From the sequence record OR062945.1: 64,000 nt of DNA; one strand, 5' to 3'. Positions 4,503 to 17,640 of this stretch are shown here, piece by piece. The number at the start of each line of letters is the position of its first letter. The stretch's first letter is position 1. The notes under the pieces were generated by a model. The model had not been told where the DNA came from. It did no database searches and saw only the letters and a list, made by a program, of their open reading frames with translations. This DNA is from Escherichia phage 308Ecol101PP. The translations under genes were made by a program, and so were the position numbers.

Positions 4503-4514
4503 TTTAACAAAACA

Positions 4515-4553
4515 GTTTACATAAGGATGATGGCGTGTTACTATCATCCTATC
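4515..4553 (+). promoter_or_regulatory. Early promoter cassette (GTTTAC -35, extended -10 TGTTACTAT) with flanking inverted repeat
   Basis: GTTTAC 4515-4520; IR AGGATGAT / ATCATCCT around the -10. Confidence 0.55.
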
Positions 4554-4578
4554 AAATAAACGACCTCAAGGAAATAAA

Positions 4579-4866
4579 ATGAAAACCTATAAAGAATTTA
4601 TATCACCTGTTGCTAACGTTTCTACTCTGACCGAAGCAACCCTTACTTCCGAAGTTATTAAAGCAAATAAAGGACGTGAGGGTAAACCAATGATTAGTCT
4701 GGTTGACGGCGAAGAAGTAAAAGGTACTGTTTACTTAGGGGATGGATGGTCTGCTAAGAAAGATGGCGCTACTATTGTTATCTCTCCGGCTGAAGAGACT
4801 GCACTGTTTAAAGCTAAGCATATTTCTGTAGCTCAGCTTAAAATTATTGCAAAAACTCTTCTGTAA
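4579..4866 (+). CDS. Internal protein I-like capsid-targeted protein
   Basis: N-terminal MKTYKEFISPV... capsid-targeting leader; 95 aa; position next to 57B as T4 ipI; promoter cassette at 4515. Confidence 0.7.
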   Translation: MKTYKEFISPVANVSTLTEATLTSEVIKANKGREGKPMISLVDGEEVKGTVYLGDGWSAKKDGATIVISPAEETALFKAKHISVAQLKIIAKTLL

Positions 4867-4869
4867 GTA

Positions 4870-4908
4870 GTTTACATGCTGATAGGACTATGTTATAGTA
4901 GTCCTATC
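4870..4908 (+). promoter_or_regulatory. Early promoter stem-loop cassette (PeSL-like)
   Basis: GTTTAC; 10-bp IR GATAGGACTA / TAGTCCTATC flanking TGTTATAG. Confidence 0.6.
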
Positions 4909-4935
4909 AAATCAACAACCAAACGGAAAAAACAA

Positions 4936-5199
4936 ATGAAAACGTATAAAGAATTTATCGCTGAATCTCAATCTTCTACTCTGTCAGAGAACTACGAATC
5001 ATTCTCTTACAACAACGACCATGCAATGTTCTACGACCGAAACATCGGTACTTATGTCCATGTATGGGGTGTTAAAGATGGTAACGTAGTTGTTAAGAAA
5101 AACTCTAAAGAAGGCAATGGTCGTGGCCAGGTAAAAATTACCAGCAAGAAAGCTATCCAAGCTTACGTCGATTATGTTAAACGCGAAGCTGGTATTTAA
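4936..5199 (+). CDS. Capsid-targeted internal-protein-like protein
   Basis: Starts MKTYKEFIAESQ (CTS leader) at internal ATG 4936; promoter cassette at 4870. Confidence 0.65.
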   Translation: MKTYKEFIAESQSSTLSENYESFSYNNDHAMFYDRNIGTYVHVWGVKDGNVVVKKNSKEGNGRGQVKITSKKAIQAYVDYVKREAGI

Positions 5200-5201
5200 T
5201 A

Positions 5202-5241
5202 GTTTACATGATGATAGGACTATGTTATAGTAGTCCTATCA
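5202..5241 (+). promoter_or_regulatory. Early promoter stem-loop cassette (PeSL-like)
   Basis: GTTTAC; identical IR GATAGGACTA / TAGTCCTATC. Confidence 0.6.
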
Positions 5242-5261
5242 AAACATGAGAGGATAATAAA

Positions 5262-5447
5262 ATGAAACGCGCTGAACTGATTCGTAATGTTGCTGTAGTA
5301 ATTGCTTCAATGGCTTTTAGTTTTTCGATGTTTGTAGGATTCATTTGTGGACTACTGACGACAACTGAAAATTCTATCTCATTGGTAGTAGCATTTCTAA
5401 TCGGCTTAATCGCTATCGTTATGGATAAAATTGCAAAAGGTGAGTAA
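5262..5447 (+). CDS. Small membrane protein (61 aa)
   Basis: Hydrophobic 61 aa ORF directly downstream of promoter cassette 5202 with SD GAGAGGA; the overlapping minus-strand ORF is judged a shadow. Confidence 0.55.
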   Translation: MKRAELIRNVAVVIASMAFSFSMFVGFICGLLTTTENSISLVVAFLIGLIAIVMDKIAKGE

Positions 5448-5448
5448 A

Positions 5449-5811
5449 ATGAAATATCACGTATATGCTGATTTTGAAGCAAATCCTTCTAAAGACCCTG
5501 ATTGTCGTTTGATACGCAGACCATTTGATTCAGCAGCTCAAGCATGGGCTTGGATTAAAACTTGTACTCCTTCTTACACTTTCTTTGAAGTGGTAGACGA
5601 TAACGGAGTTCTGCATCCAGAACCTACAGAAACTATTAATTTCCTTCTGTTTGCTGGTTATGACTGTTATCCTCTTGGTGGTATTGACGACCTTGTTGCT
5701 ACAGGAAAAACTGTTGAGGCTCTTCGCGAAATTTATAAAAACGCAGAAGAAAATTTTGACTGGTATCATATTGTTGATGCTCATACCTTTGAAATGGTGG
5801 AACATTCATGA
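5449..5811 (+). CDS. Hypothetical protein
   Basis: SD GGTGAG then ATG 5449 (MKYHVYADFEANPSKDPD...); stop/start overlap with upstream ORF. Confidence 0.6.
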   Translation: MKYHVYADFEANPSKDPDCRLIRRPFDSAAQAWAWIKTCTPSYTFFEVVDDNGVLHPEPTETINFLLFAGYDCYPLGGIDDLVATGKTVEALREIYKNAEENFDWYHIVDAHTFEMVEHS

Positions 5812-6098
5812 TTCTTTATGCTAAAGTATCGTCCATTGAGAATGGATATGAAAGCGATCAACGTGCAGCTAAAGCACTAGTTGATGACTACGGTATTCTG
5901 ACTAACTTTGAGGTTGAAAAGGTTTATATCGACCGTTCATCTTCGCAAGTTAAATTACTCTGTGAAGACGATAAATTTAACACAGTTAACTTTGATTTCT
6001 TTATTGAAACAGAAAAAGGCCCTCTTGAATATGATATTTTCAAGAATCCTTTGAAATTACGTTGCATTGAATATAATTACATTAATATGGTACGGTGA
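5808..6098 (+). CDS. Hypothetical protein
   Basis: ATGA overlap with upstream gene; 96 aa. Confidence 0.6.
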   Translation: MILYAKVSSIENGYESDQRAAKALVDDYGILTNFEVEKVYIDRSSSQVKLLCEDDKFNTVNFDFFIETEKGPLEYDIFKNPLKLRCIEYNYINMVR

Positions 6099-6102
6099 GT
6101 AA

Positions 6103-6618
6103 ATGAATATTTGTTTAGGCAGTACAATTCCTAAGGGTTACGTAATTGATGTCACTACTTGGGAAAATGACGGCGACAACTATAAAACCAAAACATTATT
6201 TGGTGTAGAAGAGCATGAGCTCCAACAGTTTAAATATCTCTTAAAGAAATTTAAGAGCCGTCATTCCAGCACTAAAGCTGAACGTTACTGTGGTAATACA
6301 CTATTCAGTGATTGTTCGCTTTTAATCTATGAATACTTGGTTGAAGGACTGTTCTCAGACCAGCTTTATCCAGAATTCATTAAAAAGGTCTTTGGTATCG
6401 AAGTTGACCTTGGTGACAAATCCGAAGAAGATGAAACACGTGTATTCGACCTATTCTTTGAGAGCGGAGATGAGATATCTCAAGGACTTATTGATATTCT
6501 TGGCTATGCTTCCGAATACTATGATTACGATTTCTTGCGTGTAGTTGAACGTGTTGAATTCGCTTATATTGAAGAAGAAATTGTTTTGCCGACTGTTAAA
6601 ATGATTGATTTGCTTTAA
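6103..6618 (+). CDS. Hypothetical acidic protein
   Basis: SD GGTGAG before ATG; 171 aa. Confidence 0.65.
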   Translation: MNICLGSTIPKGYVIDVTTWENDGDNYKTKTLFGVEEHELQQFKYLLKKFKSRHSSTKAERYCGNTLFSDCSLLIYEYLVEGLFSDQLYPEFIKKVFGIEVDLGDKSEEDETRVFDLFFESGDEISQGLIDILGYASEYYDYDFLRVVERVEFAYIEEEIVLPTVKMIDLL

Positions 6619-6697
6619 GAATTATGTGTTATTATTAATTCATACCCTCTATTACCAAAGGTGCTCTAAAGTGCCTTTCATAATAGAAAGTTATTAA

Positions 6698-6772
6698 GGC
6701 CCTGTAGCTCAATGGGAGAGCTGTCAGCTCATAACTGATAGGTAGCTGGATCGAAACCAGCCAGGGTCACCA
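6698..6772 (+). tRNA. tRNA-Met (anticodon CAT; could be Ile2 if lysidinylated)
   Basis: Hand-folded cloverleaf: acceptor GGCCCTG/CAGGGTC, D stem GCTC/GAGC, anticodon stem GTCAG/CTGAT with loop CTCATAA, T arm GCTGG-ATCGAAA-CCAGC, encoded CCA. Confidence 0.8.
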
Positions 6773-6775
6773 ATT

Positions 6776-6852
<77 letters not shown>

Positions 6853-6870
6853 ACTTCAAGTGAGGAAAAT

Positions 6871-7215
6871 ATGAAAGGCAATATTTATTTGGTAGTTCAT
6901 GATTTAACGTTTTATTTTAACGAACAGGATACAGTTATTTCCGACCGGTTGATTAATTCGTTATATCAACACGCTGATTACGTTTATTTTCAAAATGAAT
7001 TCGGACATTGGAAGTTTCTTAAAAACCGTTCCGGGTTAACTAGTTTTGAATACTTTGACCGTAAAGACCTTTTAAACGAAATTCCATTACAACATCGGTT
7101 CCAGAAACGCGAATCACTATACTATTGTCGCCATATACCAAATGCTGAATGTGTTTATGAAGCGATTAATCTATGGCGTAGACGTAGAGAGCAAATTGAT
7201 GATATGCCAAAATAA
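6871..7215 (+). CDS. Hypothetical protein
   Basis: ATG 6871 after SD GAGGA; the ORF-track start at 6823 would lie inside tRNA-Arg. Confidence 0.55.
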   Translation: MKGNIYLVVHDLTFYFNEQDTVISDRLINSLYQHADYVYFQNEFGHWKFLKNRSGLTSFEYFDRKDLLNEIPLQHRFQKRESLYYCRHIPNAECVYEAINLWRRRREQIDDMPK

Positions 7216-7518
7216 GAAGCCGGGTCGCTACCGGCAAGTCGTCGGACTGATGTTCCCTGAGTAAGGACTGGTCTTAATAAATCTTTATGATTTGTTAATA
7301 TCCCCTTACATCACAGCAGAAACGGCGCAAAGAATTATCGATTCGAGGAAATATCTTTGCCGTAAGCCGAGTAGCGTTTTTGACGGAACGTTCGGATATG
7401 GTCGAGATATGGCCTTTTAAAAATATTGAGTAGCGTCAACTGCTTAATAACCGGGTTCGAATCCCGGCGTTTCGTACAAACACTTGCCTTAGTAGGTGGA
7501 AACCCCGACAAGGTATAT
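7216..7518 (+). ncRNA. Candidate structured stable RNA(s) with tRNA-like 3' T-arm (non-coding gap downstream of tRNAs)
   Basis: 300 nt without ORF, relatively GC-rich; contains CCGGGTTCGAATCCCGG T-arm-like hairpin (7451-7467) and local hairpins; bounded by terminator 7520; T4 has stable RNAs in its tRNA cluster. Confidence 0.3.
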
Positions 7519-7519
7519 A

Positions 7520-7547
7520 GCCCCTTCCGAAAGGTTGGGGCTTTTTT
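7520..7547 (+). terminator. Rho-independent terminator
   Basis: GCCCC-TTCCGAAAGGTT-GGGGC followed by TTTTTT. Confidence 0.7.
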
Positions 7548-7548
7548 G

Positions 7549-7556
7549 TATAAATA
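7549..7556 (+). promoter_or_regulatory. Late promoter motif TATAAATA upstream of CTS-protein gene 7592
   Basis: Exact 8-mer immediately after terminator 7520. Confidence 0.4.
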
Positions 7557-7591
7557 TAGTAAACAATAAACCTACTTTCTAAGGACCATCA

Positions 7592-8218
7592 ATGTATACT
7601 TTTAATGAATTTTTAGCCGAAACGGAAGTAATCACCGAAGCCGGTGTACGTATGACAAAAGAGAAATGGCAAGCTGCTTACGATGCTATTTCTGGTACAA
7701 AAACTAGTACAGAGTTTTTCAAAAACGTTCAAGCCATGTATGGTATCGACACTTCCAGCCAAAAAGAATATTACAGAGCTTCTAAAGCATTCAAAGATAT
7801 TGTTAGTGGCGGTGTTTCTGCTAAATCGGGTTCGCCTAAAGTAAAACCTGCTCCTACCGTTCCTAAACCTGCGACCCCTAAAGCAATAGCAAAACCTGAG
7901 CCTAAGCCGGAAGTAAAAGCAACTCCTAAAGCTCCTGCTCTTAAGTTTGATACTTCTAGCCTGGAAAAAAAATATAAACAACTATCTTCGCTTGTTCGTG
8001 ATATTGAATCCGATACATCTTCACTCGTTCGTGAATTCAACAGTCTTCGTAATGGCCAACATATCAACAACCTTGATACCCCAGACCTTTATCGTCTTTA
8101 TTTGACTATTGAAGGTTTGAAGTACACTCAACCACTTCATGATGAGATTAAAGAAAAACTTCGTCAGGCAGGTCGTTTGGCTGCTGACGCTGCTCAGTAT
8201 GCAAAAACTCGTAAGTAA
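7592..8218 (+). CDS. Capsid-targeted protein with Pro/Lys-rich linker
   Basis: Starts MYTFNEFLAETEV (CTS-like); PKVKPAPTVPKPATPKAIAKPEPKPEVKATPKAP low-complexity linker; TATAAATA late-promoter motif at 7549. Confidence 0.7.
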   Translation: MYTFNEFLAETEVITEAGVRMTKEKWQAAYDAISGTKTSTEFFKNVQAMYGIDTSSQKEYYRASKAFKDIVSGGVSAKSGSPKVKPAPTVPKPATPKAIAKPEPKPEVKATPKAPALKFDTSSLEKKYKQLSSLVRDIESDTSSLVREFNSLRNGQHINNLDTPDLYRLYLTIEGLKYTQPLHDEIKEKLRQAGRLAADAAQYAKTRK

Positions 8219-8223
8219 AGAAT

Positions 8224-8243
8224 GGGGACTTCGGTCCCCTTTA
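8224..8243 (+). terminator. Rho-independent terminator with UUCG tetraloop
   Basis: GGGGAC-TTCG-GTCCCC then TTTA. Confidence 0.6.
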
Positions 8244-8270
8244 GGGGGTCTATAACTTACTGAAAAAGTT

Positions 8271-8299
8271 GTTTACTTCTTCCCTAGATGTGTTACTAT
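8271..8299 (+). promoter_or_regulatory. Early promoter (GTTTAC, 17 nt spacer, TGTTACTAT)
   Basis: -35/-10 spacing as sigma70 consensus; weak IR. Confidence 0.5.
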
Positions 8300-8327
8300 A
8301 GTCCTATTAAAACATGAGGAGAATATT

Positions 8328-8831
8328 ATGAGTCTTTACACTGAACTGAATAAAAAATCTGAAGAATCCGCTGAAACTATTTTTAAAAACGTGCAAAAGC
8401 GTATTTTAGAAAAGATGTATAACACTGCAGCTAAAGGTGAAAAATCTTGCCGGTTTCCGATGAGGTGTTCTTCCGATTTATGCGCAAATACTATTGAATG
8501 GCTGGAAAGTGAAGGTCTTACGGTAGAGAAAAACCCGGCGTCTTCTATTGACAGTGAATCATATATTAGTATTTCTTGGGATAAATCAAGGGTAGAAGAG
8601 AAAGATGGTGATTGGGTTGTAGATGTTAAAACTTCTGATGGCGGACGTTCTGTTGAAGTTTCAGCTGTAGTTAAAGGTACCCACGAACAAAGGACTTGGG
8701 GATGGGGTGGTGAAGAAAAAGAAATTGTTCTTAGTGTGATTGCCAGGTCAACTAGTAATAAAATTGCACAAAGCATCATTGACGCTGCAATTGCTGAAGC
8801 AGAAAAAATTTGCAAAATTAAAAATAAATGA
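8328..8831 (+). CDS. Hypothetical protein
   Basis: Promoter cassette 8271 and SD GAGGAGA upstream; 167 aa. Confidence 0.65.
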   Translation: MSLYTELNKKSEESAETIFKNVQKRILEKMYNTAAKGEKSCRFPMRCSSDLCANTIEWLESEGLTVEKNPASSIDSESYISISWDKSRVEEKDGDWVVDVKTSDGGRSVEVSAVVKGTHEQRTWGWGGEEKEIVLSVIARSTSNKIAQSIIDAAIAEAEKICKIKNK

Positions 8832-8860
8832 TGTACAAACGCCAAGGACGGTGTTACTAT
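8832..8860 (+). promoter_or_regulatory. Early promoter (TGTACA -35, GTGTTACTAT -10)
   Basis: 17 nt spacer. Confidence 0.45.
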
Positions 8861-8889
8861 AGACCTATCAACTACAGAGGAGAAACAAA

Positions 8890-9117
8890 ATGGCTACAGT
8901 TAGTATTGATGTCGTTGATTATGAATACACCGAAGAAGTTATTCGCAGCCGTCACCCTGAAGTTCGTATCGATTCAGTCCAAGATTCCAAGTTTTGGACA
9001 ACCGAGCTTAATCTGAGTGGTCCTTATGAAGCTGTTAAGAAGTTCATGGTTGAAGAATACTGCGAAGGCATGCACCCCGAAGACGCCGAGTTTTATGTCA
9101 ATTTGATTAAAAAATAA
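8890..9117 (+). CDS. Hypothetical acidic protein
   Basis: Promoter 8832, SD GAGGAGA; 75 aa. Confidence 0.6.
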   Translation: MATVSIDVVDYEYTEEVIRSRHPEVRIDSVQDSKFWTTELNLSGPYEAVKKFMVEEYCEGMHPEDAEFYVNLIKK

Positions 9118-9125
9118 TTTACAAA

Positions 9126-9161
9126 CTCTTGAGAGCAGAGTATAATGCTCTCGTTGGATAA
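9126..9161 (+). promoter_or_regulatory. Early promoter cassette with IR GAGAGC / GCTCTC around TATAAT
   Basis: TTTACA -35, TATAAT -10 at 9150-9155; near-identical copy at 39400. Confidence 0.6.
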
Positions 9162-9187
9162 TAAACCACCAATTGAAAGGTAATAAT

Positions 9188-9781
9188 ATGAACACACTGA
9201 AGAAACTTGTTGAATTCATCCGCACTAAACTTGGTACTGCTATGGCTAAAAATCTGACTGTCGAAGAACAGTATAACGCAGCTGCAGATAAGTTGATTAC
9301 CCAAATCAAAGAACTAAAAACGGCTTCTGTTAAATCTATTAATGAAGAAAAACGTATTCGCGAACTTGTTATTGAAAAGAATAAGCAAGCCGCTTCTAAG
9401 GAACGTGAAATTCGTAAGCTCTTGGCTGAAGGACAAGATGTTACCATGCATGCCAAGCTTGGTCTTCTGTATCGTCGAACTGCCGAACAACTTAATACAA
9501 AAGCTGACGGGTACGCTGCTATGCGAATTGAAATTGCTCGTAAGGTGGTTGAACTTGATGATGCTCGTCAGAACCTGGCAATCAAACTCGAATACATTCG
9601 TGAAACTCGAGCAGCCAATGCCCTTGGTATCTCTACGGCTGATGATGTAATTGAAATCGCTGCACTGACTAAGGTTGATATCGAAGACACTCTGACTCGT
9701 GTTGAAACGTTCAATGGCACTCCAGCTGGTGTCGAAACCACTTCTGCTGATGTACAAGAATATATTAACTCTTTGAAATAA
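9188..9781 (+). CDS. Coiled-coil protein (PspA/IM30-like?)
   Basis: Promoter cassette 9126; long heptad-rich helical sequence; terminator hairpin at 9790. Confidence 0.65.
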
Positions 9782-9789
9782 AATAATAC

Positions 9790-9812
9790 GGAGGACTCCG
9801 GTCCTCCTTTTG
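9790..9812 (+). terminator. Rho-independent terminator
   Basis: GGAGGAC-TCCG-GTCCTCC then TTTTGG. Confidence 0.65.
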
Positions 9813-9830
9813 GATAATAAAGGAGTTAAC

Positions 9831-10427
9831 ATGCGAAACCAAAATAATGATATTGACTCAATGTTCGAAGAGTTCCGAGATAAGGTAAATCCACCTACGT
9901 CTTTAGTTGATTCATTACGATATGTTGCAACTGGACGTAAATGGTACTGGTCGTCTTCTTATGAGACAACTGAATATGCAAATAACCGAAAATCTTTATT
10001 AGCCCCAGGTATTATGATTCATGATATCGGAGCTATTGCTAAACTAGTTGCAGACCATGATATTAGATTCACTGATTTCATTGCTCCTACGTGGTCTGTT
10101 TGTTGTTTAAACACTGAATGGGACTACATCAGTGAACGTTCAGATGATTACGTAGGCTTTAGAGATAAGCTCTTAAGGTCTAACATGTTTTATATCGATA
10201 CAGAAGTTCTAGTCGATAATAAAAAATATTACTTTACGTTAATCGTCGATTCTGAAACTATGTATGAAGGCAAGCCTTTGCTTAAAAGAGTTGATGCTTT
10301 AAGTGCTATTGATGCGCTTTATGAAACTATGGTTGTTAGTCCTAATTTCACTAACAATTTAATCCTTGAGCAATTTATTATGGAATGTAGAGAATATGTC
10401 AAAGCCAACCCTATACATGCCAATTAA
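9831..10427 (+). CDS. Hypothetical protein; C-terminus carries QFIMECREY junction motif
   Basis: SD AGGAG then ATG 9831; ends overlapping next gene. Confidence 0.65.
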   Translation: MRNQNNDIDSMFEEFRDKVNPPTSLVDSLRYVATGRKWYWSSSYETTEYANNRKSLLAPGIMIHDIGAIAKLVADHDIRFTDFIAPTWSVCCLNTEWDYISERSDDYVGFRDKLLRSNMFYIDTEVLVDNKKYYFTLIVDSETMYEGKPLLKRVDALSAIDALYETMVVSPNFTNNLILEQFIMECREYVKANPIHAN

Positions 10428-10791
10428 GCCCTGGGCATACGAATACAAACGTAAATTAATTCCTAATGAAGTGTTGTTTGGTCCTATTTTAGCTTTAGCA
10501 TTTTTAATCTTTATGATTATAGGAGCTATTTTAGATTCCAATAAAGTTATATCGTCTGATGCAGCATTTTCATTAATGTTCGTCGCACCACTTATTGTAC
10601 CGTTTTTATTAATGCCTATTAATTGGGTAGGATATTGGCACCAAGGCCGTCATCACAGAGCCCGATTAAGAGAATGGAAAGTTCAGTGCGCAAAAGCCCA
10701 AGCTCAATATGATGAAGCTGTTAAAAAGTATGAATATGAAGAAGCTATGGAATTCGTTAAGGAAATAAGATGCAAAAGCCTCAACTCTTAA
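10396..10791 (+). CDS. Small membrane protein, FIKECR-tail family
   Basis: ATG directly after GAATGTAGAGAAT junction motif; two hydrophobic segments; C-terminal ...MEFVKEIRCK. Confidence 0.55.
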   Translation: MSKPTLYMPIKPWAYEYKRKLIPNEVLFGPILALAFLIFMIIGAILDSNKVISSDAAFSLMFVAPLIVPFLLMPINWVGYWHQGRHHRARLREWKVQCAKAQAQYDEAVKKYEYEEAMEFVKEIRCKSLNS

Positions 10792-11129
10792 CCGTATGGC
10801 CGTCTCTTGGTGAGAACATTCTAATTTTTATTATGAGTATTGGCATGGGATTTGCCTTTGGATTAGTTGGATTTCTTATTGACGGAGTTGTGTTAGGATT
10901 TATAGGGAATACAGGTGGATTCACAGACCAATGGCAGGACCTAAGATACACCCAAGCTTTTGCATCTATCGCATCATTTTGTACTGTAGTCTATTTTTAC
11001 TACGATTTTATAAACCATAACAAGAAAAATAAAAAGGTTTACGCTTCTCAAATGATTAGTTATAATGAACTCCTAGCTAGACGTGAAAATGAAACAATAG
11101 AAAACTTTATTAAGGAATGTAGAAAATGA
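10770..11129 (+). CDS. Small membrane protein, FIKECR-tail family
   Basis: Hydrophobic segments; C-terminal ...ENFIKECRK; ATGA overlap with downstream gene. Confidence 0.65.
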   Translation: MQKPQLLTVWPSLGENILIFIMSIGMGFAFGLVGFLIDGVVLGFIGNTGGFTDQWQDLRYTQAFASIASFCTVVYFYYDFINHNKKNKKVYASQMISYNELLARRENETIENFIKECRK

Positions 11130-11431
11130 GTAAGATTATTGAAATTAAAGTACCAGAGTTTAATGATGCTAAATCCGCTTCAGATGCAATTTATAAACTT
11201 CTGAATCAAGCTGAACGTATCGAAGAAGAAGCAACAAAGATCGCGGACCAATATGCTGTATCATTTTCTGTAGGTGATTATGGTAGCGGTCGTACTTATT
11301 ATCCTAAGGGTGAAATTGTATCCCAGTGGATGAAAGATGAAATTGAAAATAATGGTGGTGATGTTAAACGTGAAGGTAATGGTTACGTTATTACTGAAGG
11401 TGCTTGGGTTTCGTCTTCTGCGATGTGCTAA
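11126..11431 (+). CDS. Small protein, tandem paralog 1 (C-terminal GAWVSSSAMC)
   Basis: First of three adjacent ORFs sharing C-terminal G-W-x-S/A-S-S-x-x-C tail. Confidence 0.65.
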   Translation: MSKIIEIKVPEFNDAKSASDAIYKLLNQAERIEEEATKIADQYAVSFSVGDYGSGRTYYPKGEIVSQWMKDEIENNGGDVKREGNGYVITEGAWVSSSAMC

Positions 11432-11440
11432 GGAATCATT

Positions 11441-11713
11441 ATGTCTAAAGAACAAACCGAACTGGCTGAAGCCGTAGCAAAAATCTATGCAGCTATTGAG
11501 GCTGCCAAAGAAATTGCTGATAAACAAAACACAACATTCAACTTGTATCCAGCTTATGGTATGGGTGGAACCTATCATTCACCCGGACAACTTAAAGCCG
11601 ATCTTGAACGTTGTACAAAAAACGGCTATGCCGAATGGGCTGACGTTTACCAATACGACTACAACCTGAGCCTCGAAACTGGTGGTTGGATTGCATCTTC
11701 TCACACTTGCTAA
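11441..11713 (+). CDS. Small protein, tandem paralog 2 (C-terminal GGWIASSHTC)
   Basis: SD AAGGAA then ATG; shared C-terminal tail. Confidence 0.65.
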   Translation: MSKEQTELAEAVAKIYAAIEAAKEIADKQNTTFNLYPAYGMGGTYHSPGQLKADLERCTKNGYAEWADVYQYDYNLSLETGGWIASSHTC

Positions 11714-11722
11714 GGAAACCAT

Positions 11723-11920
11723 ATGTCTCGTGAATTAGATTGTGCTGTACGTACGGCAGTAGCTGCTCTGGAAAACCTGTTCCAAATTGCAACAGAAGAA
11801 CGCGAAGAAGTTACATTGTGGATTGAAGATAACGCAGGTCTGAATCTCCAGGACGCGATCTCATTATCCAATAATAGCATTACTGTTCAAGGCTGGGTAT
11901 CATCTAGTTATTCTTGCTAA
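11723..11920 (+). CDS. Small protein, tandem paralog 3 (C-terminal QGWVSSSYSC)
   Basis: SD AAGGAA then ATG; shared C-terminal tail. Confidence 0.6.
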   Translation: MSRELDCAVRTAVAALENLFQIATEEREEVTLWIEDNAGLNLQDAISLSNNSITVQGWVSSSYSC

Positions 11921-11924
11921 AACA

Positions 11925-11963
11925 GTTTACAACAAGATAGGGCTATGTTATAGTAGTCCTATC
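11925..11963 (+). promoter_or_regulatory. Early promoter stem-loop cassette (PeSL-like)
   Basis: GTTTAC; IR GATAGGGCTA / TAGTCCTATC. Confidence 0.6.
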
Positions 11964-11982
11964 AAATTAAATGGAGTCCACA

Positions 11983-12222
11983 ATGATTTATTACGAAAGT
12001 ATCGGAACCAAAGTGGTTGGTAAAACCATTACTCGCGAAAAGTTTGCAAAGATATTCGATATGCGTTATAAAAAATCTGAACACAAAGGCATCCGATTCG
12101 AAGATGCGCACTGTACAATTTGTCCTTATAATGAAGACATAAACGGTACAATCGTTCCATTGGTAGAGGCTTCACATGATGACCTCTGGGATGAATATAA
12201 TATCGCATGTCGTGAAATTTAA
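11983..12222 (+). CDS. Hypothetical protein
   Basis: Promoter cassette 11925; SD GGAG before ATG 11983 (alternative start 11971). Confidence 0.6.
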   Translation: MIYYESIGTKVVGKTITREKFAKIFDMRYKKSEHKGIRFEDAHCTICPYNEDINGTIVPLVEASHDDLWDEYNIACREI

Positions 12223-12246
12223 GTTAATTAATCCGAGGAAAATATT

Positions 12247-13203
12247 ATGATGTTAGTTATTGGTTCTCGTGCACTTCACTATCATGGTCTTATTGATTCT
12301 AACGCTATCAAAAATAGTGATTGGGACTTTATTGCAGACCAAGGTTCTTGGAATGCATTCAAAAATCAAATGATGGGTGTATATGTTCATCAAGATAACC
12401 CTGATGTCCAAGTTTTCAAATGCTTCCATAATGGACGCGAAACTCATTTTGAAGCATATATTGTTCCGGCAATCACTAATGTCCGTGAATTAGTCGGTGA
12501 ACTCACTCCTGAAGATTTCACGTCTTCTTATGACCTTTTAAAATACGCCAAGAAAAATTTGACTAAAGACCGTTTGAACGGGTTTTACTGGGCAACTCCT
12601 GAGATATGTCTTGCAATTAAGATGTCTCATCGTTTCAAGAAAAATAATCCATTCTTTTTAAAGACTATGAACCATATTCAGTATCTTCGTGGTAAAGGTG
12701 TTACACTGAACGATGAACTTACTGAAATTATGCTGAAACGCCAGAAAGAAACCTTGAACTATGCTCACCCGATTCTTGACACTTCTAAAAGTGCGTTCTT
12801 TAAAGATGACATCTATACATATGACCATGATACTATTCATGAAGCCATTGCACTAACAGACCGTCCGGCTTATACGTTTTATATGAAAGACGGTTCTGAA
12901 GTAATGACCTCACGCGAGAAGTTTGAATCACTTCCGGAAATGGTCAAATTGGCCGGTGTATATGAAGAAACATGTGTACTAGCGTTAGAACGTTCTCAGA
13001 TTCCTAATGGCTTTGAAATCCATCCTCGTGATAGTTTTATGATGGCATTAGAAAAGGTCTGTACTTCAATCACATCAGGCTGGTTCCGTGAGTATGCCTG
13101 GGAGAACTATGGCAAAGTAGTAAGTATGTATCAAAGCTTAGGACACGACGATTACGTCAAGCGTTTCAAACAAAATTTTCATATGGTAAAACCTTTCAAA
13201 TAA
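12247..13203 (+). CDS. Hypothetical protein (318 aa)
   Basis: Long ORF with SD GAGGAAA; no fold recognised. Confidence 0.7.
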   Translation: MMLVIGSRALHYHGLIDSNAIKNSDWDFIADQGSWNAFKNQMMGVYVHQDNPDVQVFKCFHNGRETHFEAYIVPAITNVRELVGELTPEDFTSSYDLLKYAKKNLTKDRLNGFYWATPEICLAIKMSHRFKKNNPFFLKTMNHIQYLRGKGVTLNDELTEIMLKRQKETLNYAHPILDTSKSAFFKDDIYTYDHDTIHEAIALTDRPAYTFYMKDGSEVMTSREKFESLPEMVKLAGVYEETCVLALERSQIPNGFEIHPRDSFMMALEKVCTSITSGWFREYAWENYGKVVSMYQSLGHDDYVKRFKQNFHMVKPFK

Positions 13204-13215
13204 TTTCACCAAACT

Positions 13216-13253
13216 GTTTACAAGGTCTGTAGTTGTTGATACTATAGACCTAT
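13216..13253 (+). promoter_or_regulatory. Early promoter stem-loop cassette (PeSL-like)
   Basis: GTTTAC; IR GGTCTGTAG / CTATAGACC. Confidence 0.55.
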
Positions 13254-13282
13254 CAAAACAAATGAGTGAATGGAGATACAAA

Positions 13283-13483
13283 ATGACTACTTTGAATAAA
13301 CGTTTCGGTAAAGCTAAACCTGGCTGTGCAGCAGAACGTCGTTACATTTTCGCTCAGTTAGAAGATGTAGAGTATCAGATTAATCAAGTTCACATTACTG
13401 GCATCGAGCCTATGTGTGGCCTTGAAGCTCTTCGTGAAGTTCGTGACGGGTATCGTCGTGATATCGAAGAAATGTCAAAATAA
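13283..13483 (+). CDS. Hypothetical protein
   Basis: Promoter cassette 13216; SD GGAGA before ATG 13283 (alternative start 13262). Confidence 0.55.
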   Translation: MTTLNKRFGKAKPGCAAERRYIFAQLEDVEYQINQVHITGIEPMCGLEALREVRDGYRRDIEEMSK

Positions 13484-13522
13484 GTGTACAAACTGATAGG
13501 GCTATGTTATAGTAGTCCTATT
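13484..13522 (+). promoter_or_regulatory. Early promoter stem-loop cassette (PeSL-like)
   Basis: GTGTAC; IR GATAGGGCTA / TAGTCCTATT. Confidence 0.55.
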
Positions 13523-13541
13523 AAAACATGAGGAGAATAAT

Positions 13542-13847
13542 ATGAAATTAACAGAAACCAACCGAATTGGTCTTTTAACAATACTTGCATCACCTTTTTA
13601 CGCAGCTCTTTCTGTTGCAGTATTACAAAAGGCTTACGATATGGATGGTGTTCCTGGTTTTGTATTCTTATCACCGTTTTTGCTATTCGTTGGAGCATTG
13701 TTATTATACGCCACGACTAGTTTCGACCATAATGTCTGGGTCAATTATAAATGTAAATTGTCTGAAGAAGAACACGCAGAAGCTCGTAAAAAAGCTATTG
13801 AATCTACCAATCTAGAAAATTTCATTAAAGAATGTCGAGGAAAATAA
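13542..13847 (+). CDS. Small membrane protein, FIKECR-tail family
   Basis: Promoter cassette 13484; hydrophobic segments; C-terminal ...ENFIKECRGK. Confidence 0.65.
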   Translation: MKLTETNRIGLLTILASPFYAALSVAVLQKAYDMDGVPGFVFLSPFLLFVGALLLYATTSFDHNVWVNYKCKLSEEEHAEARKKAIESTNLENFIKECRGK

Positions 13848-13848
13848 T

Positions 13849-14535
13849 ATGAATAGTTCTAAAGTGTTTAATAGTCAAGCTCGTGCAGTAGGTGGTTTTG
13901 CTCATGCGATTAAAAACGACCAGATTAAAAACGAGCCTATGTTCTTTAACTGCGATTTGAATTTTGCTTTTGATAATGGCGGCCCGATTACTCGTAGCTT
14001 TATCCAAAATCTTCCTGATGATTGGAAAGACTCGGATGTAGTATTTGATTCACGAGTCCACATGCTGATGCCTGGTTGGTATCCTGCTATTCCTGGATAT
14101 CACCATGATGACGTACCACGCCCAGATATTCCAACAGGACAACATTTTATTACTGCAGGACAACCTGATTATGACAACCCTCGTTACCATTCTGAACATA
14201 TTCTTGGTCTTGTTAACGCTGATGTGTGTCCTACTCATTTTGCAACAGGAACTGCAGAGTTCAGTCAGATTCCTGATGGCGAACTTATCTATCGCCAGTG
14301 GCACAAAGAAGTCCTCGAAAAAATTGAAAAAGGTGAACTAGAGAAATGGGAAGCTCCAGATCGTACTCTTCTTCAGTTTGATTGGCAAACATGGCACACT
14401 GGTTCTCGTGCAATTAGTAATGGATGGCGTTGGTTCGGACGTGTATCTCGTAATACAGACCGAGTTAAAAAGATTACCAATGAAATTCGTGTCAACGCTC
14501 AAGTTTATCTAGAATTCCCTATGGAAGGCTGGTAA
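13849..14535 (+). CDS. Hypothetical protein (228 aa)
   Basis: Starts immediately after FIKECR junction; no fold recognised. Confidence 0.7.
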   Translation: MNSSKVFNSQARAVGGFAHAIKNDQIKNEPMFFNCDLNFAFDNGGPITRSFIQNLPDDWKDSDVVFDSRVHMLMPGWYPAIPGYHHDDVPRPDIPTGQHFITAGQPDYDNPRYHSEHILGLVNADVCPTHFATGTAEFSQIPDGELIYRQWHKEVLEKIEKGELEKWEAPDRTLLQFDWQTWHTGSRAISNGWRWFGRVSRNTDRVKKITNEIRVNAQVYLEFPMEGW

Positions 14536-15026
14536 TGATTAACAAAACATATTGGTCTAATATAGACGATGACAACGAAGGTATTTCATACTATTCAGTA
14601 GATTGGACGGGATGTCCATCCTACTTAGTGAAACATATTTGCCAAGAATTTAAAATCGACCAGCCAGCAGGTATTATTGTGAACAGATACATTAATGGAT
14701 ATCAACCTATCGATGAAGTAATACGAACAACTCAAGCTGATCTTGAAAAGTTTTTCAATAAGTGCCAATGGATAACAGGATGGATTATATTTGTACCGTC
14801 GGTATGGTTTTTTAGTACTAAAGTAAGTGCCTTTGCTGTACTAGATATTATCGCTATCTTATTAGCATCTACTATTGTAAGTATTATTGGTGGTATTATT
14901 GGTGGAGGTACTGTAGGCATCATTATTAATCTTGTTAAAAGTAGTTTACAGGAACGTAAAGACAAGATAAAGGCCAAGAATAATGAAGTTGAACGTTTTA
15001 TTACCGAATGCAGGAATTTGAGATGA
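14535..15026 (+). CDS. Membrane protein, FIKECR-tail family
   Basis: Gly/Ile-rich transmembrane segment; C-terminal ...ERFITECRNLR. Confidence 0.65.
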   Translation: MINKTYWSNIDDDNEGISYYSVDWTGCPSYLVKHICQEFKIDQPAGIIVNRYINGYQPIDEVIRTTQADLEKFFNKCQWITGWIIFVPSVWFFSTKVSAFAVLDIIAILLASTIVSIIGGIIGGGTVGIIINLVKSSLQERKDKIKAKNNEVERFITECRNLR

Positions 15027-15259
15027 GTATAGCAATTTACATTAAATCAGAATCATGTGATAGTTATCTGTACACATACGATAAAGACGTGTCAGAAGAA
15101 AAAATCAAAGACGATCTTAATATGGACCTTGATATGTTCTGTCCTATTGCAGATTACAAACTTGCGGTCTCTAATAGTGAAAGTCCATCTAAAGAAACGC
15201 GCATTGAAGAATTTATGTCCGAATTAATGGCTAAATCATGGGACCGAGATGATGAGTAA
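15023..15259 (+). CDS. Hypothetical acidic protein
   Basis: ATG 15023 after GAATGCAGGAA junction (alternative start 15008). Confidence 0.55.
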   Translation: MSIAIYIKSESCDSYLYTYDKDVSEEKIKDDLNMDLDMFCPIADYKLAVSNSESPSKETRIEEFMSELMAKSWDRDDE

Positions 15260-15707
15260 GAAAAATAAAGTGAAAGAACTATCAGCCGGTATTATTTTCC
15301 TTACCGAAGATAAAGAATTATTCATGGGGCGTGTAACTGGTTCTCGTCCTAAAGGTTCTTTAGCTCATCGGTGGGATATTCCTAAAGGTCGTGTCGAGCC
15401 CGGTGAATCTCCTATCGAAGCCGCTATTCGTGAATGCGAAGAAGAAACTGGGTTTACACAATATGACCCTGCCTTCCTGAAAGACCTAGGTGAACATCAT
15501 TACTCAGACAATAAGAATATTCATCTGTTCCTATATACCATCCCTGTAGAGCACGAGCAATTCAGAAACAGTGTTTGTAATTCCTATCATACGTTCCCAG
15601 ACGGACGACAGATTCCTGAATTTGATGCATTCGCTTTAATTAAACCTTCTCAGTGGGAATATGTAATGGGCAAATCATTATATAAGGTGCTCACTACCAT
15701 CCTATAA
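15249..15707 (+). CDS. nudE: Nudix hydrolase NudE
   Basis: Nudix box GRVEPGESPIEAAIRECEEETG; position immediately upstream of lysozyme as in T4. Confidence 0.85.
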   Translation: MMSKKNKVKELSAGIIFLTEDKELFMGRVTGSRPKGSLAHRWDIPKGRVEPGESPIEAAIRECEEETGFTQYDPAFLKDLGEHHYSDNKNIHLFLYTIPVEHEQFRNSVCNSYHTFPDGRQIPEFDAFALIKPSQWEYVMGKSLYKVLTTIL

Positions 15708-15709
15708 GT

Positions 15710-15739
15710 AATAAATACCTCCTATAAACGTGGGAGGTA
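15710..15739 (+). promoter_or_regulatory. Lysozyme RBS-sequestering hairpin with embedded late-promoter-like AATAAATA
   Basis: TACCTCC (15716-15722) pairs with GGAGGTA (15733-15739), which contains the lysozyme SD GGAGG; 7/8 match to TATAAATA at 15710-15717. Confidence 0.45.
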
Positions 15740-15741
15740 TT

Positions 15742-16230
15742 ATGAATATATTTGAAATGCTTCGTAATGACGAAGGTCTTAGACTGACTTTATACAAAGA
15801 CACTGAAGGCTTTTGGACAATTGGCATAGGTCATTTAGTAACAAAGAACCCGTCTTTAGCTGTAGCTAAAGCTGAACTTGACAGAATGATCGGGCGTAAA
15901 TGCAACGGTACAATTACCCTTGATGAGGCTGAAAAGTTATTTAATGAAGACGTTGATAAAGCTGTTCGCGGAATCTTGGGTAATGTTAAACTTAAACCGG
16001 TATATGATTCTTTAGATGCGGTTCGTCGATGTGCATTGGTCAATATGGTCTTCCAAATGGGTGTAGCAGGCGTCGCTGGTTTTACTAATTCTCTTCGTAT
16101 GCTTCAACAGAAACGTTGGGATGAAGCGGCAGTAAATCTAGCACAATCTAAATGGTATCGTCAGACACCTAATCGCGCGAAACGCGTAATCTCAACATTT
16201 AAAACAGGAACTTGGAAAGCGTATATATGA
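15742..16230 (+). CDS. e: Endolysin (T4 lysozyme e)
   Basis: [32 protein letters not shown]...[27 protein letters not shown]: near-complete match to T4 lysozyme. Confidence 0.95.
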
Positions 16231-16508
16231 AAACATATAGTGAATTTTTATCAGAATCTATTCTTAACGAAGCTACTGACACATTTGCAACTAAGCTAGG
16301 TGCAGCTTTGGTTGAAGCTGAAAGTCTATTAGCACGTATTTCTGAACTTGCTAGTAAGATAGATACTCGCAAATTTGAGCGCACCAGTGATATCGTTAAG
16401 CTTGAAGCCTTGTTGCGTATGTGCGATAAACCGGAAGAAATCGCTAAGAACGGCTCGCTGATGAAACAACGTCTTGAAAAATATATTTCAGGCGCTTCAG
16501 AAAAATAG
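16227..16508 (+). CDS. Capsid-targeted internal-protein-like protein
   Basis: Starts [12 protein letters not shown] (CTS leader); ATGA overlap with lysozyme stop. Confidence 0.65.
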
Positions 16509-16509
16509 T

Positions 16510-16564
16510 GTTTACTTCCTCCAAGGGTTTTGATACTATACATTCATCAACTACTTGGAGGAAA
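16510..16564 (+). promoter_or_regulatory. Early promoter cassette; IR pairs an anti-SD segment with the denV SD
   Basis: GTTTAC; TTCCTCCAAG (16517-16526) complementary to CTTGGAGGAA (16555-16564), which holds the SD; -10 TACTAT inside the loop. Confidence 0.6.
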
Positions 16565-16566
16565 TT

Positions 16567-16980
16567 ATGACTCGTATCAATTTAACACTTGTTTCTGAAC
16601 TGACCGACCAACATCTTATGGCTGAGTATCGTGAATTACCACGCGTATTTGGTGCAGTCCGTAAACATGTTCAAAACGGTAAACGTGTAAAGGATTTTAA
16701 AATCTCTCCAACATTTATCTTAGGCACAGGTCACGTAACATTCTTTTACGACAAACTCGAATTTTTACGTTTACGTCAAATCGAGCTAATCGCCGAATGC
16801 TTGAAACGTGGTTTCAAAATCAAGGACACATCTGTCCAAGATATTTCCGACATCCCTGCCGAATTTCGTAATAATTATGTCCCGTCCGAAGCGTCCATTG
16901 CGATAAGTCAAGCACGCTTAGATGAAAAAATTGCTCAGCGCCCGACTTGGTACAAATACTATGGTAAATCAATTTACTAA
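16567..16980 (+). CDS. denV: Endonuclease V (pyrimidine dimer DNA glycosylase)
   Basis: [35 protein letters not shown]...[10 protein letters not shown] matches T4 DenV. Confidence 0.95.
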
Positions 16981-16986
16981 GGAAAA

Positions 16987-17247
16987 ATGAAAATGTATCA
17001 AGAATTTATCGCTGAAGCAGATGCCAAAGGTCCTAAATTTAAAGTTAAAGCTTTCATTGGTGATGCGGAAGACTTTGGCTCATTAAAACGTAATGGGTAT
17101 TCTTTCTTAGGTGGCGATGGTAAAGAAATCAACACCTATGCAAAACGTAGTGAAATTGCTTATGTTGTAGCAAGCCCTAAAGTAGATGTTGACGATATTG
17201 GATACGATTTTAACAACTTTGGAATTATTTCTGGCGGTAAAGCTTAA
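16987..17247 (+). CDS. Internal protein (ipII/ipIII-like), capsid-targeted
   Basis: Starts MKMYQEFIAEA (CTS leader); adjacent to denV as T4 ipII/ipIII. Confidence 0.65.
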   Translation: MKMYQEFIAEADAKGPKFKVKAFIGDAEDFGSLKRNGYSFLGGDGKEINTYAKRSEIAYVVASPKVDVDDIGYDFNNFGIISGGKA

Positions 17248-17250
17248 ATT

Positions 17251-17280
17251 GTTTACGCTTAAGTATTAATATGGTATAAT
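17251..17280 (+). promoter_or_regulatory. Early promoter (GTTTAC, 18 nt spacer, TATAAT)
   Basis: Consensus hexamers upstream of CTS gene 17311. Confidence 0.55.
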
Positions 17281-17310
17281 TACTCTATCAAAACAAATAA
17301 GGAAACAAAA

Positions 17311-17640
17311 ATGAAAACGTATCAAGAGTTTATCACTGAAGTTACATTATCTGCGGAACAGAAAGCTGCTATCGAAGAAGGTAAAAATCCCAAAGTAACA
17401 TATAAAGTAAATGGTAAAGGCGTTTTTGATGGCTTGGTTCAAGACCCTGAATTGAAAAAAGCTCTTTCTAAAACTAATGCGTACTTTGCTCCTAAATTTA
17501 ACGCAGCCGGTGTACTTATTGGATTGGATGTATTCAACTCTAAAGGTGTTCTATCTAATGCCTTTGGTTATGCCGCTAACAAAATTACCAAAGCCGAATG
17601 GGAATCCAATACCAAACAAGCTCAAAAGCCTAGAGTATAA
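17311..17640 (+). CDS. Internal protein (ipII/ipIII-like), capsid-targeted
   Basis: Starts MKTYQEFITEV (CTS leader); promoter 17251. Confidence 0.65.
   Translation: MKTYQEFITEVTLSAEQKAAIEEGKNPKVTYKVNGKGVFDGLVQDPELKKALSKTNAYFAPKFNAAGVLIGLDVFNSKGVLSNAFGYAANKITKAEWESNTKQAQKPRV

Follow-up and report, generated by a model that had tools for sequence, protein, structure and literature searches.

Six genes in a 64-kb stretch of the genome of Escherichia phage 308Ecol101PP (accession OR062945.1), the whole of which was analysed and is called the window here, begin with the short leader that targets the internal proteins of phage T4 to the capsid. We consider it very likely that they encode ejected internal head proteins (IPs) of a Mosigvirus, which would be processed by gp21-type cleavage and serve as anti-defence cargo, IPI among them. 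The genes, named here after the first position of their open reading frames (ORFs), lie in a 13-kb stretch that matches 923 phage records, the best being Escherichia phage PNJ-6 (96.8%); the leading matches among those listed come from phages of E. coli and Shigella, and those checked belong to Mosigvirus (RB69/JS09/mar005P1 group). By this similarity, the window is that of a Mosigvirus, an RB69/JS09-like T-even coliphage. The gene order is T4-like (1, 57A, 57B, ipI, trna.4-.2, tRNAs, e.x genes, nudE, e, denV, vs.8). ORFs 4579 and 4936 follow 57B, at the T4 ipI locus (57B–tRNA), and ORFs 16227, 16987 and 17311 surround denV between e and vs.8, at the T4 ipIII-ipII locus. These two classical, hypervariable IP loci hold five of the six leader genes, the exception being ORF 7592, which lies at a third locus directly downstream of rnaD/rnaC homologues. 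Leader-tagged, injected anti-restriction proteins have been in the literature since 1994, functional work having added to them in 2022–2025, and this interpretation is not new. The modest additions here are three members without a label in the records seen (ORFs 4936, 7592 and 17311) and one conserved family, that of ORF 7592, which may be new.

The leader was searched for with the regular expression M-[KY]-[TM]-[YF]-x-E-F-[IL] over the six frames of the whole window. It matched six ORFs, all on the + strand (4579, 4936, 7592, 16227, 16987 and 17311), exactly those on which a first-pass annotation of this DNA had placed it. No seventh match was found on either strand or in any frame of the window, and 100 shuffled versions of it gave a mean of 0.07 matches and a maximum of one. 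The consensus proposed earlier, MK(T/M)Y(K/Q/S)EF(I/L)(A/S/T)E, holds as a general description of the leader but fails for ORF 4579, in which position 10 is Pro and not Glu; the ORF 7592 leader, MYTFNEFLAE, is the variant that it was said to be, with Tyr at position 2. Diverse bodies behind a constant leader had also been described, and BLASTP indeed detects no pairwise similarity among the six proteins once their first 12 residues are cut off. As the bodies are unrelated, an origin of the six genes by duplication was ruled out. The complete genome of mar005p1 (Mosigvirus, 168,962 bp) has the leader on exactly six ORFs, at the same three loci only, and therefore the six ORFs found here are probably the full set in this phage. 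In LF82-41, a second close relative, the homologous stretch has five leader ORFs.

For packaging in T4, IPIII needs no more than its first ten residues, positions 4 and 7 of the leader govern targeting and positions 8 and 10 govern processing, and the gp21 prohead protease cleaves after the Glu of L/I-x-E (PMC9026906). Position 4 is Tyr or Phe and position 7 is Phe throughout the set, and each of the six proteins has an L/I-x-E site within its first 25 residues. In five of them the site is (I/L)-x-Glu10 (IAE10 in 4936 and 16987, LAE10 in 7592, LSE10 in 16227 and ITE10 in 17311), whereas ORF 4579 has L-T-E19 followed by Ala, where T4 IPI has I-T-E19 followed by Ala; further L/I-x-E sites of the set are at residues 15, 16 and 18. 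The predicted mature forms have masses of 8.0 (4579), 8.7 (4936), 21.3 (7592), 8.6 (16227), 8.1 (16987) and 10.7 kDa (17311), similar to the ~8, 10 and 20 kDa of the T4 internal proteins (PMC9026906), and predicted isoelectric points (pI) of 9.0, 9.2, 9.7 and 9.6 for 4579, 4936, 7592 and 17311, respectively. As for the protease, the gp21 gene region lies outside the window, and in a relative of ~96% identity the encoded Peptidase_S77 protein (3e-107) is 88% identical to T4 gp21. Together with the IP loci and the IPI orthologue, the T4 leader residues and gp21 sites support the ejected internal proteins proposed in the first-pass annotation. From the observed sequences, motifs, homologies, gene context and cassette boundaries we infer packaging, cleavage and ejection, as well as targets other than that of IPI.

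Table 1. Leader genes of the window and the expression signals next to them.
Feature	Coordinates	Strand	Description	Basis
PeSL-like cassette before ipI	4513..4559	+	family D1, TTTACA-17-TACTAT with TG	hairpin z = -3.1
ORF 4579, ipI orthologue	4579..4866	+	95 aa, MKTYKEFISP	Pfam, identity to T4 IPI, PHROG 4363
PeSL-like cassette before ORF 4936	4868..4914	+	left edge of variable cassette in alignment	hairpin z = -4.5
ORF 4936, leader ORF	4936..5199	+	87 aa, MKTYKEFIAE, sites I-A-E10 and L-S-E18, variable cassette	
PeSL-like cassette after ORF 4936, before trna.4 homologue	5200..5246	+	96% identical to 4868 copy	hairpin z = -5.0
Terminator and late promoter before ORF 7592	7520..7556	+	terminator-like hairpin 7520-7541, T-run 7542-7547, T4-type late promoter TATAAATA 7549-7556	sequence and fold
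ORF 7592, leader ORF	7592..8218	+	208 aa, MYTFNEFLAE.TEVITE.AG	PHROG 2280, unknown function
ORF 16227, leader ORF	16227..16508	+	93 aa, sites L-S-E10 and L-N-E15	PHROG 3499 'internal head protein', 1e-46
ORF 16987, leader ORF	16987..17247	+	86 aa, MKMYQEFIAE, I-A-E10 then Ala	PHROG 2667 'internal head protein', 7e-21
Degenerate cassette before ORF 17311	17249..17295	+	TTTACG-17-TATAAT	weak hairpin, z = -1.7
ORF 17311, leader ORF	17311..17640	+	109 aa, MKTYQEFITE, I-T-E10 site, mature form basic	PHROG 3966, unknown function
aa, amino acids; PeSL, early promoter and stem-loop.

By analogy with T4, the leader of about ten residues would tie the protein that carries it to the scaffolding core while the prohead is being assembled. 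Cleavage by the gp21 protease after Glu10, or Glu15/16/18/19, would follow and free the mature proteins inside the head, from which they would exit with the DNA at infection and thus act ahead of any phage gene expression. A T4 head is estimated to hold ~300 copies of each internal protein, about 1000 molecules in total (PMC3012670, PMC9026906). As IPI, ORF 4579 would inhibit GmrSD-type type IV restriction of sugar-modified hydroxymethylcytosine DNA, and the products of ORFs 4936, 16227, 16987 and 17311 are most likely inhibitors of narrow spectrum that act on first-line defences, type IV restriction enzymes above all. The product of ORF 7592, expressed from a late promoter, would be a conserved internal protein that is strongly basic and of the size of IPIII. 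The diversity of the set would be maintained by cassette exchange, with promoter/stem-loop repeats and leader DNA as recombination points.

The link with a known anti-restriction protein is closest at the ipI locus. ORF 4579 matches Pfam PF11634 (IPI_T4) with an E-value of 1.3e-50 and 169.7 bits (cutoff 25), its residues 20-95 covering profile positions 1-76 of 76; the other five leader proteins do not match this profile. Identity to T4 IPI is 88% over the full length and rises to 94% in the mature part, where four residues are substituted; the PHROG of ORF 4579 is called 'internal virion protein', and the protein is named IpI in RB69 and relatives. By these similarities ORF 4579 is an IPI orthologue. 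It shares with T4 IPI the locus after 57B, the length and a 19-residue propeptide, here MKTYKEFISPVANVSTLTE, that ends in (L/I)-T-E and is followed by Ala, the first residue of a predicted 76-aa mature IPI*; the two differ at propeptide residues 8-13. RB69 IPI is reported to be four residues apart from T4 IPI and to protect RB69 from GmrSD (PMC6024577), and ORF 4579 shows the same number of differences, a comparison by count only. Inhibition of GmrSD is therefore predicted for ORF 4579 from orthology. Unlike in T4, the modified cytosine of Mosigvirus DNA is arabinosylated rather than glucosylated (PMC6024577, PMC13326640), and the range of enzymes countered by ORF 4579 may thus differ from that of T4 IPI.

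The second gene of this locus, ORF 4936, is labelled 'hypothetical' in all 35 phage records that carry it, and a tblastn search retrieved Mosigvirus and Dhakavirus records only. Its match to PHROG 13302, a family of unknown function, begins only at residue 16. The mechanical ORF call starts at ATG 4876, which sits within a promoter/hairpin cassette, and position 4936 is therefore likely to be the true start. A TTG at 16212 similarly precedes the ATG of ORF 16227; in either case automatic annotation could mis-start the gene and hide the leader. In Dhakavirus IME341 (MH051917.1; 1195-1416 of the compared locus), a homologue of the 4936 body, 63% identical, is leaderless (MKTLNINSFFYNAN...); its neighbours are the topoisomerase gene and motA, and what appears to be an early promoter precedes it. 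Judging from this homologue, the 4936 body exists both tagged and untagged. Among described proteins, 4936 resembles Bas37_0260 of a Tequatrovirus in being a second leader gene that stands beside ipI or replaces it, the two having been compared by description only.

The exchange of ORF 4936 can be followed in its surroundings. A 47-nt cassette, in which a T4-type early promoter (GTTTAC.-17-TA..AT with TG) has its -10 inside a stem-loop, is present in seven copies over 14.5 kb (at 4513, 4868, 5200, 8829, 11923, 13482 and 17249). The family is of the early promoter and stem-loop (PeSL) type, with a sigma-70-type early promoter and a stem-loop that are repeated and bound variable ORFs. The copies at 4868 and 5200 bracket ORF 4936 exactly, and the edges of the indel or replacement coincide with both: mar005P1 lacks the gene and has one cassette left, and LF82-41 has a different leader ORF in its place. 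This fits the PeSL-mediated shuffling described by Arbiol et al. 2010 (PMC2839356), and PeSL-type elements had already been seen at two IP loci by Repoila et al. 1994, as recounted in PMC2839356.

At the locus around denV, the three genes differ in how well they are already recognised. ORF 16227, whose ATG overlaps the stop codon of the lysozyme gene e (15730-16230) as ATGA, is the counterpart of RB69ORF127c, which is named internal head protein. ORF 16987 starts 7 nt past denV, and its family, with 217 phage records, is called internal head protein in the RB69 RefSeq entry and some others; its leader differs from MKTYQEFIAE at residue 3 only. As for ORF 17311, it is found in 90 phage records and is 'hypothetical' in all but one among those listed, the exception, a homologue from Dhakavirus with 35% identity, bearing the label 'RNA polymerase ADP-ribosylase'; leader-bearing homologues, ~37% identical, are present in Dhakavirus. 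The three share with T4 IPII and IPIII the e-denV-vs.8 locus, essentially the same leader and similar sizes, but no detectable similarity of the body. Moreover, both T4 genes lie between e and denV, whereas the Mosigvirus genes are on both sides of denV.

This arrangement is that of the T-even internal proteins at large, a highly diverse set with the leader alone in common (PMC3012670). At least ten of them were on record in 1994, and Comeau et al. 2007, as cited in PMC2839356, put the number of variants at more than 30. The repertoire of Repoila 1994 is like the present one in its constant leader, unrelated bodies, two hypervariable loci and PeSL-like elements, ORF 7592 at its third locus being the difference. 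T4 Alt and the ejection proteins of the phiKZ/SPN3US type are likewise packaged in the head, processed after Glu by gp21-type cleavage and delivered to the cell (PMC9026906), but they have other propeptides, are much larger and lack the MKTYxEFIxE tag. As for function, IPI inhibits the GmrSD of strain CT596. Among Ip1, Ip2 and Ip3, each is active against a GmrSD type IV enzyme of its own, without cross-protection by Ip2 and Ip3 (PMC12373910), and IPIII is required on ECOR17 (PMC9391042). Bas37_0260, encoded at an ipI locus and bearing the leader, inhibits McrBC (bioRxiv 10.1101/2025.11.20.689424). The suggestion that the six genes encode injected anti-defence effectors is in line with these reports and, for the class as a whole, already textbook knowledge.

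Several points weigh against taking the six genes as a uniform set of packaged, anti-defence internal proteins. When ip4-10 were tried together with ip1-3 on a GmrSD panel, no reproducible new inhibition came from ip4-10 (PMC12373910), and a role as type IV inhibitor is thus not guaranteed for new members. ORF 4579 is without Glu10, as is T4 IPI (MKTFKEFTST). Mature 16227 and 16987 are near neutral (predicted pI 8.1 and 6.4), whereas T4 internal proteins are described as basic (PMC9026906). ORF 7592 has Tyr2 and a place away from the classical loci, and it shows conservation, not hypervariability. Several leader genes have early-type promoters only; the T4 ip genes look alike in this respect, and since they do without a late promoter too, we do not hold its lack against packaging. 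Finally, our literature search for virion proteomics of Mosigvirus, or of any phage with the 7592 family, found nothing usable.

The role of ORF 7592 is where an alternative has most to offer. The mature protein is predicted to have a net charge of +13, and it has the same K+R count and the same D+E count as T4 IPIII. Its family comprises 138 phage records, all 'hypothetical' and reaching down to 34% identity, in at least six genera (Mosigvirus, Dhakavirus, Winklervirus, Kanagawavirus, Karamvirus and Marfavirus). Phe7 and Glu16-Ala17 are invariant in members down to ~48% identity, Glu10 is likewise conserved in the family, and the leader is still recognisable in the Karamvirus and Marfavirus homologues, which are ~34-37% identical. 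The element noted earlier upstream of the gene is an exact TATAAATA 43 nt before the start, and in all five other genera checked a hairpin followed by TATAAATA or (G/C)ATAAATA precedes the homologues by 35-43 nt. An AlphaFold2 model (pLDDT 72.8) has a helical N domain (residues 23-72) and a confident helical C domain (122-206), between which lies a linker that is predicted to be disordered (74-112); the Pro/Lys-rich segment already noticed in the first pass corresponds to about residues 76-117. A PDB profile search returned nothing for this protein, Foldseek against BFVD only members of its own family, and Pfam and NCBIfam only sub-threshold low-complexity matches (SIX1_SD, and TonB on the Pro/Lys linker).

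It is possible, though we lean away from it, that the 7592 protein is packaged but is mainly structural, morphogenetic or DNA-associated, as an IPIII-like core component that helps in assembling heads or condensing DNA, and not an anti-defence effector. Its conservation over six genera in place of hypervariability, a canonical late promoter as in structural genes, the size, the basic charge with the counts of T4 IPIII and the disordered linker all go in this direction, and head assembly in T4 IPIII mutants runs at about half the usual speed (PMC9026906). An hhalign comparison with IPIII gives a weak match (probability 20%) over residues 1-27, which reaches just beyond the leader. Nevertheless, BLASTP aligns the two proteins in the leader only, and the body has no detected similarity to IPIII in fold or sequence. 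Membership of 7592 in the IPIII family as a diverged form was rejected, the hhalign match being confined to the leader region, and IPIII is kept as a functional analogy. Dhakavirus carries both an IPIII homologue and the 7592 family, and 7592 is thus not a simple replacement of IPIII. T4 IPIII itself also has an anti-restriction role, so that structural and anti-defence roles are not exclusive. We take 7592 to be a conserved late internal protein that may serve in morphogenesis, in association with DNA, in anti-defence or in several of these at once. Upstream of the gene, the ORF-free segment 7210-7551 follows tRNA-Met and tRNA-Arg, is 88.6% identical to the T4 rnaD/rnaC region (species 2 / species 1 small stable RNA) and has the terminator hairpin at its end; Rfam models gave no match in it.

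The expression signals bear on a second alternative, namely that some leader proteins, particularly 4936 and 17311, act mainly as newly made early cytoplasmic proteins to which the leader adds little, being packaged inefficiently or incidentally. The exact late promoter TATAAATA was found upstream of 7592 only among the six genes. Late-promoter-like boxes with one mismatch lie upstream of e, to which 16227 is coupled, and the TATAAATA-type promoter is found upstream of 16987 and 17311 only with one mismatch; 4936 and 17311 have early sigma-70-type promoters directly upstream and lack a late promoter. The 4936 body is also leaderless at another, apparently early, locus in Dhakavirus, and leaderless IPIII still functions when provided in the host cell (PMC9391042). 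However, T4 ipI, ipII and ipIII have the same promoter/hairpin layout upstream, with the canonical late promoter absent, and are nevertheless estimated to yield their ~300 copies per head. The targeting and processing residues of the leaders are fully kept, and there is no evident reason for a purely cytoplasmic protein to retain a cleavable leader. We consider this alternative unlikely and continue to favour packaged and ejected internal proteins. It is very improbable that the shared 5' end is conserved as nucleic acid, for translation initiation or as a recombination hotspot, with a peptide devoid of targeting function: a repeat (family D3), AU-rich and 61-80% identical to its reference copy, does span the ribosome-binding site and first ten codons, and leader DNA plausibly acts as a recombination point, but the leader genes use four different codons for Thr3 (ACC, ACG, ACT and ACA), which indicates conservation as peptide and not as DNA, positions 8-9 keep their residue class while codons vary, the residue preferences of metagenomic leaders given below were not required by the search pattern, and a 10-residue peptide was enough for packaging in T4 experiments (PMC9026906).

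The leader is not confined to T-even coliphages. A degenerate DNA pattern run against IMG/VR gave at least 120 loci, a sample and not a census, with the form MKT[FY]xEF[ILMV]xE among the matches listed. Of 133 such matches, 118 begin ORFs of at least 50 aa, 106 of which have no upstream in-frame ATG. In every match listed position 3 is Thr, although the pattern permitted Ile and Met, and 75 of the 118 ORFs have Ala or Ser at position 11, which was left unconstrained. Behind the leader, at least 56 unrelated families of bodies are found on these metagenomic viral contigs, many of which belong to T4-like myoviruses. Many of the listed loci have homologues of gp41, uvsX, gp43, regA, gp44, gp45, gp46 and gp47, 30-45% identical to those of the window. 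P-TIM68 and S-T4 are among the T4-like cyanophages that one locus matches, and gp123 of Prochlorococcus phage P-TIM68 (512-1009 of the compared locus) bears the leader. A 162-aa leader family that recurs in many cyanophage loci matches the Pfam S-AdoMet lyase family (2e-19, 4e-22), anti-restriction enzymes of the T3 SAMase type, and a SAM hydrolase (S-adenosylmethionine hydrolase) is virion-associated in the proteome of the T4-like cyanophage S-CREM2 (PMC10665884). Other leader-headed bodies are an ART-PolyVal ADP-ribosyltransferase (1e-23) and a GNAT acetyltransferase; for one of the two contigs concerned (L072), CobS and related genes do no more than suggest a T4-like phage. A literature search found no paper that links the capsid targeting sequence to cyanophages.

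It is tempting to speculate, at somewhat less than an even chance, that the T4 leader is a portable injection tag throughout the T4 superfamily. This rests on the 7592 family at its third locus, the 4936 fusion of the leader to a body that is leaderless elsewhere and the bodies behind metagenomic leaders, and it suggests that the tag is used superfamily-wide to inject enzymes. If true, lists of leader-bearing ORFs would be a sequence-only readout of injected effectors, including those of abundant marine phages. If confirmed, such superfamily-wide use would be of more general interest than the six genes described here.

Internal proteins are the only phage counter-defences on hand as the DNA enters the cell. 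By this presence they would set host range with respect to enzymes whose action takes only seconds, type IV restriction of modified DNA for instance, and the leader proteins may help explain the host range of therapeutic Mosigvirus phages. ORFs 4936, 7592 and 17311, unlabelled in public records, are candidates for panels of GmrSD, McrBC and other defences.

Two further groups of ORFs share motifs. Three tandem ORFs (11126-11431, 11441-11713 and 11723-11920; 101, 90 and 65 aa) have the common C-terminal motif G(A/G)W(V/I)(S/A)SS..C, as GAWVSSSAMC, GGWIASSHTC and QGWVSSSYSC, and the repetition extends to the DNA around each stop and the start that follows it (family D9). In the other group, ORFs 9810-10427, 10366-10791, 10770-11129, 13542-13847 and 14535-15026 have a motif near the C-terminus that resembles (N/R/Q)FI(K/T/M)ECR (ENFIKECRK, ENFIKECRGK, ERFITECRNLR, EQFIMECREY and EFVKEIRCK), encoded by repeated DNA (family D17). 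The mar005P1 homologues of three of these ORFs are annotated as predicted membrane proteins.

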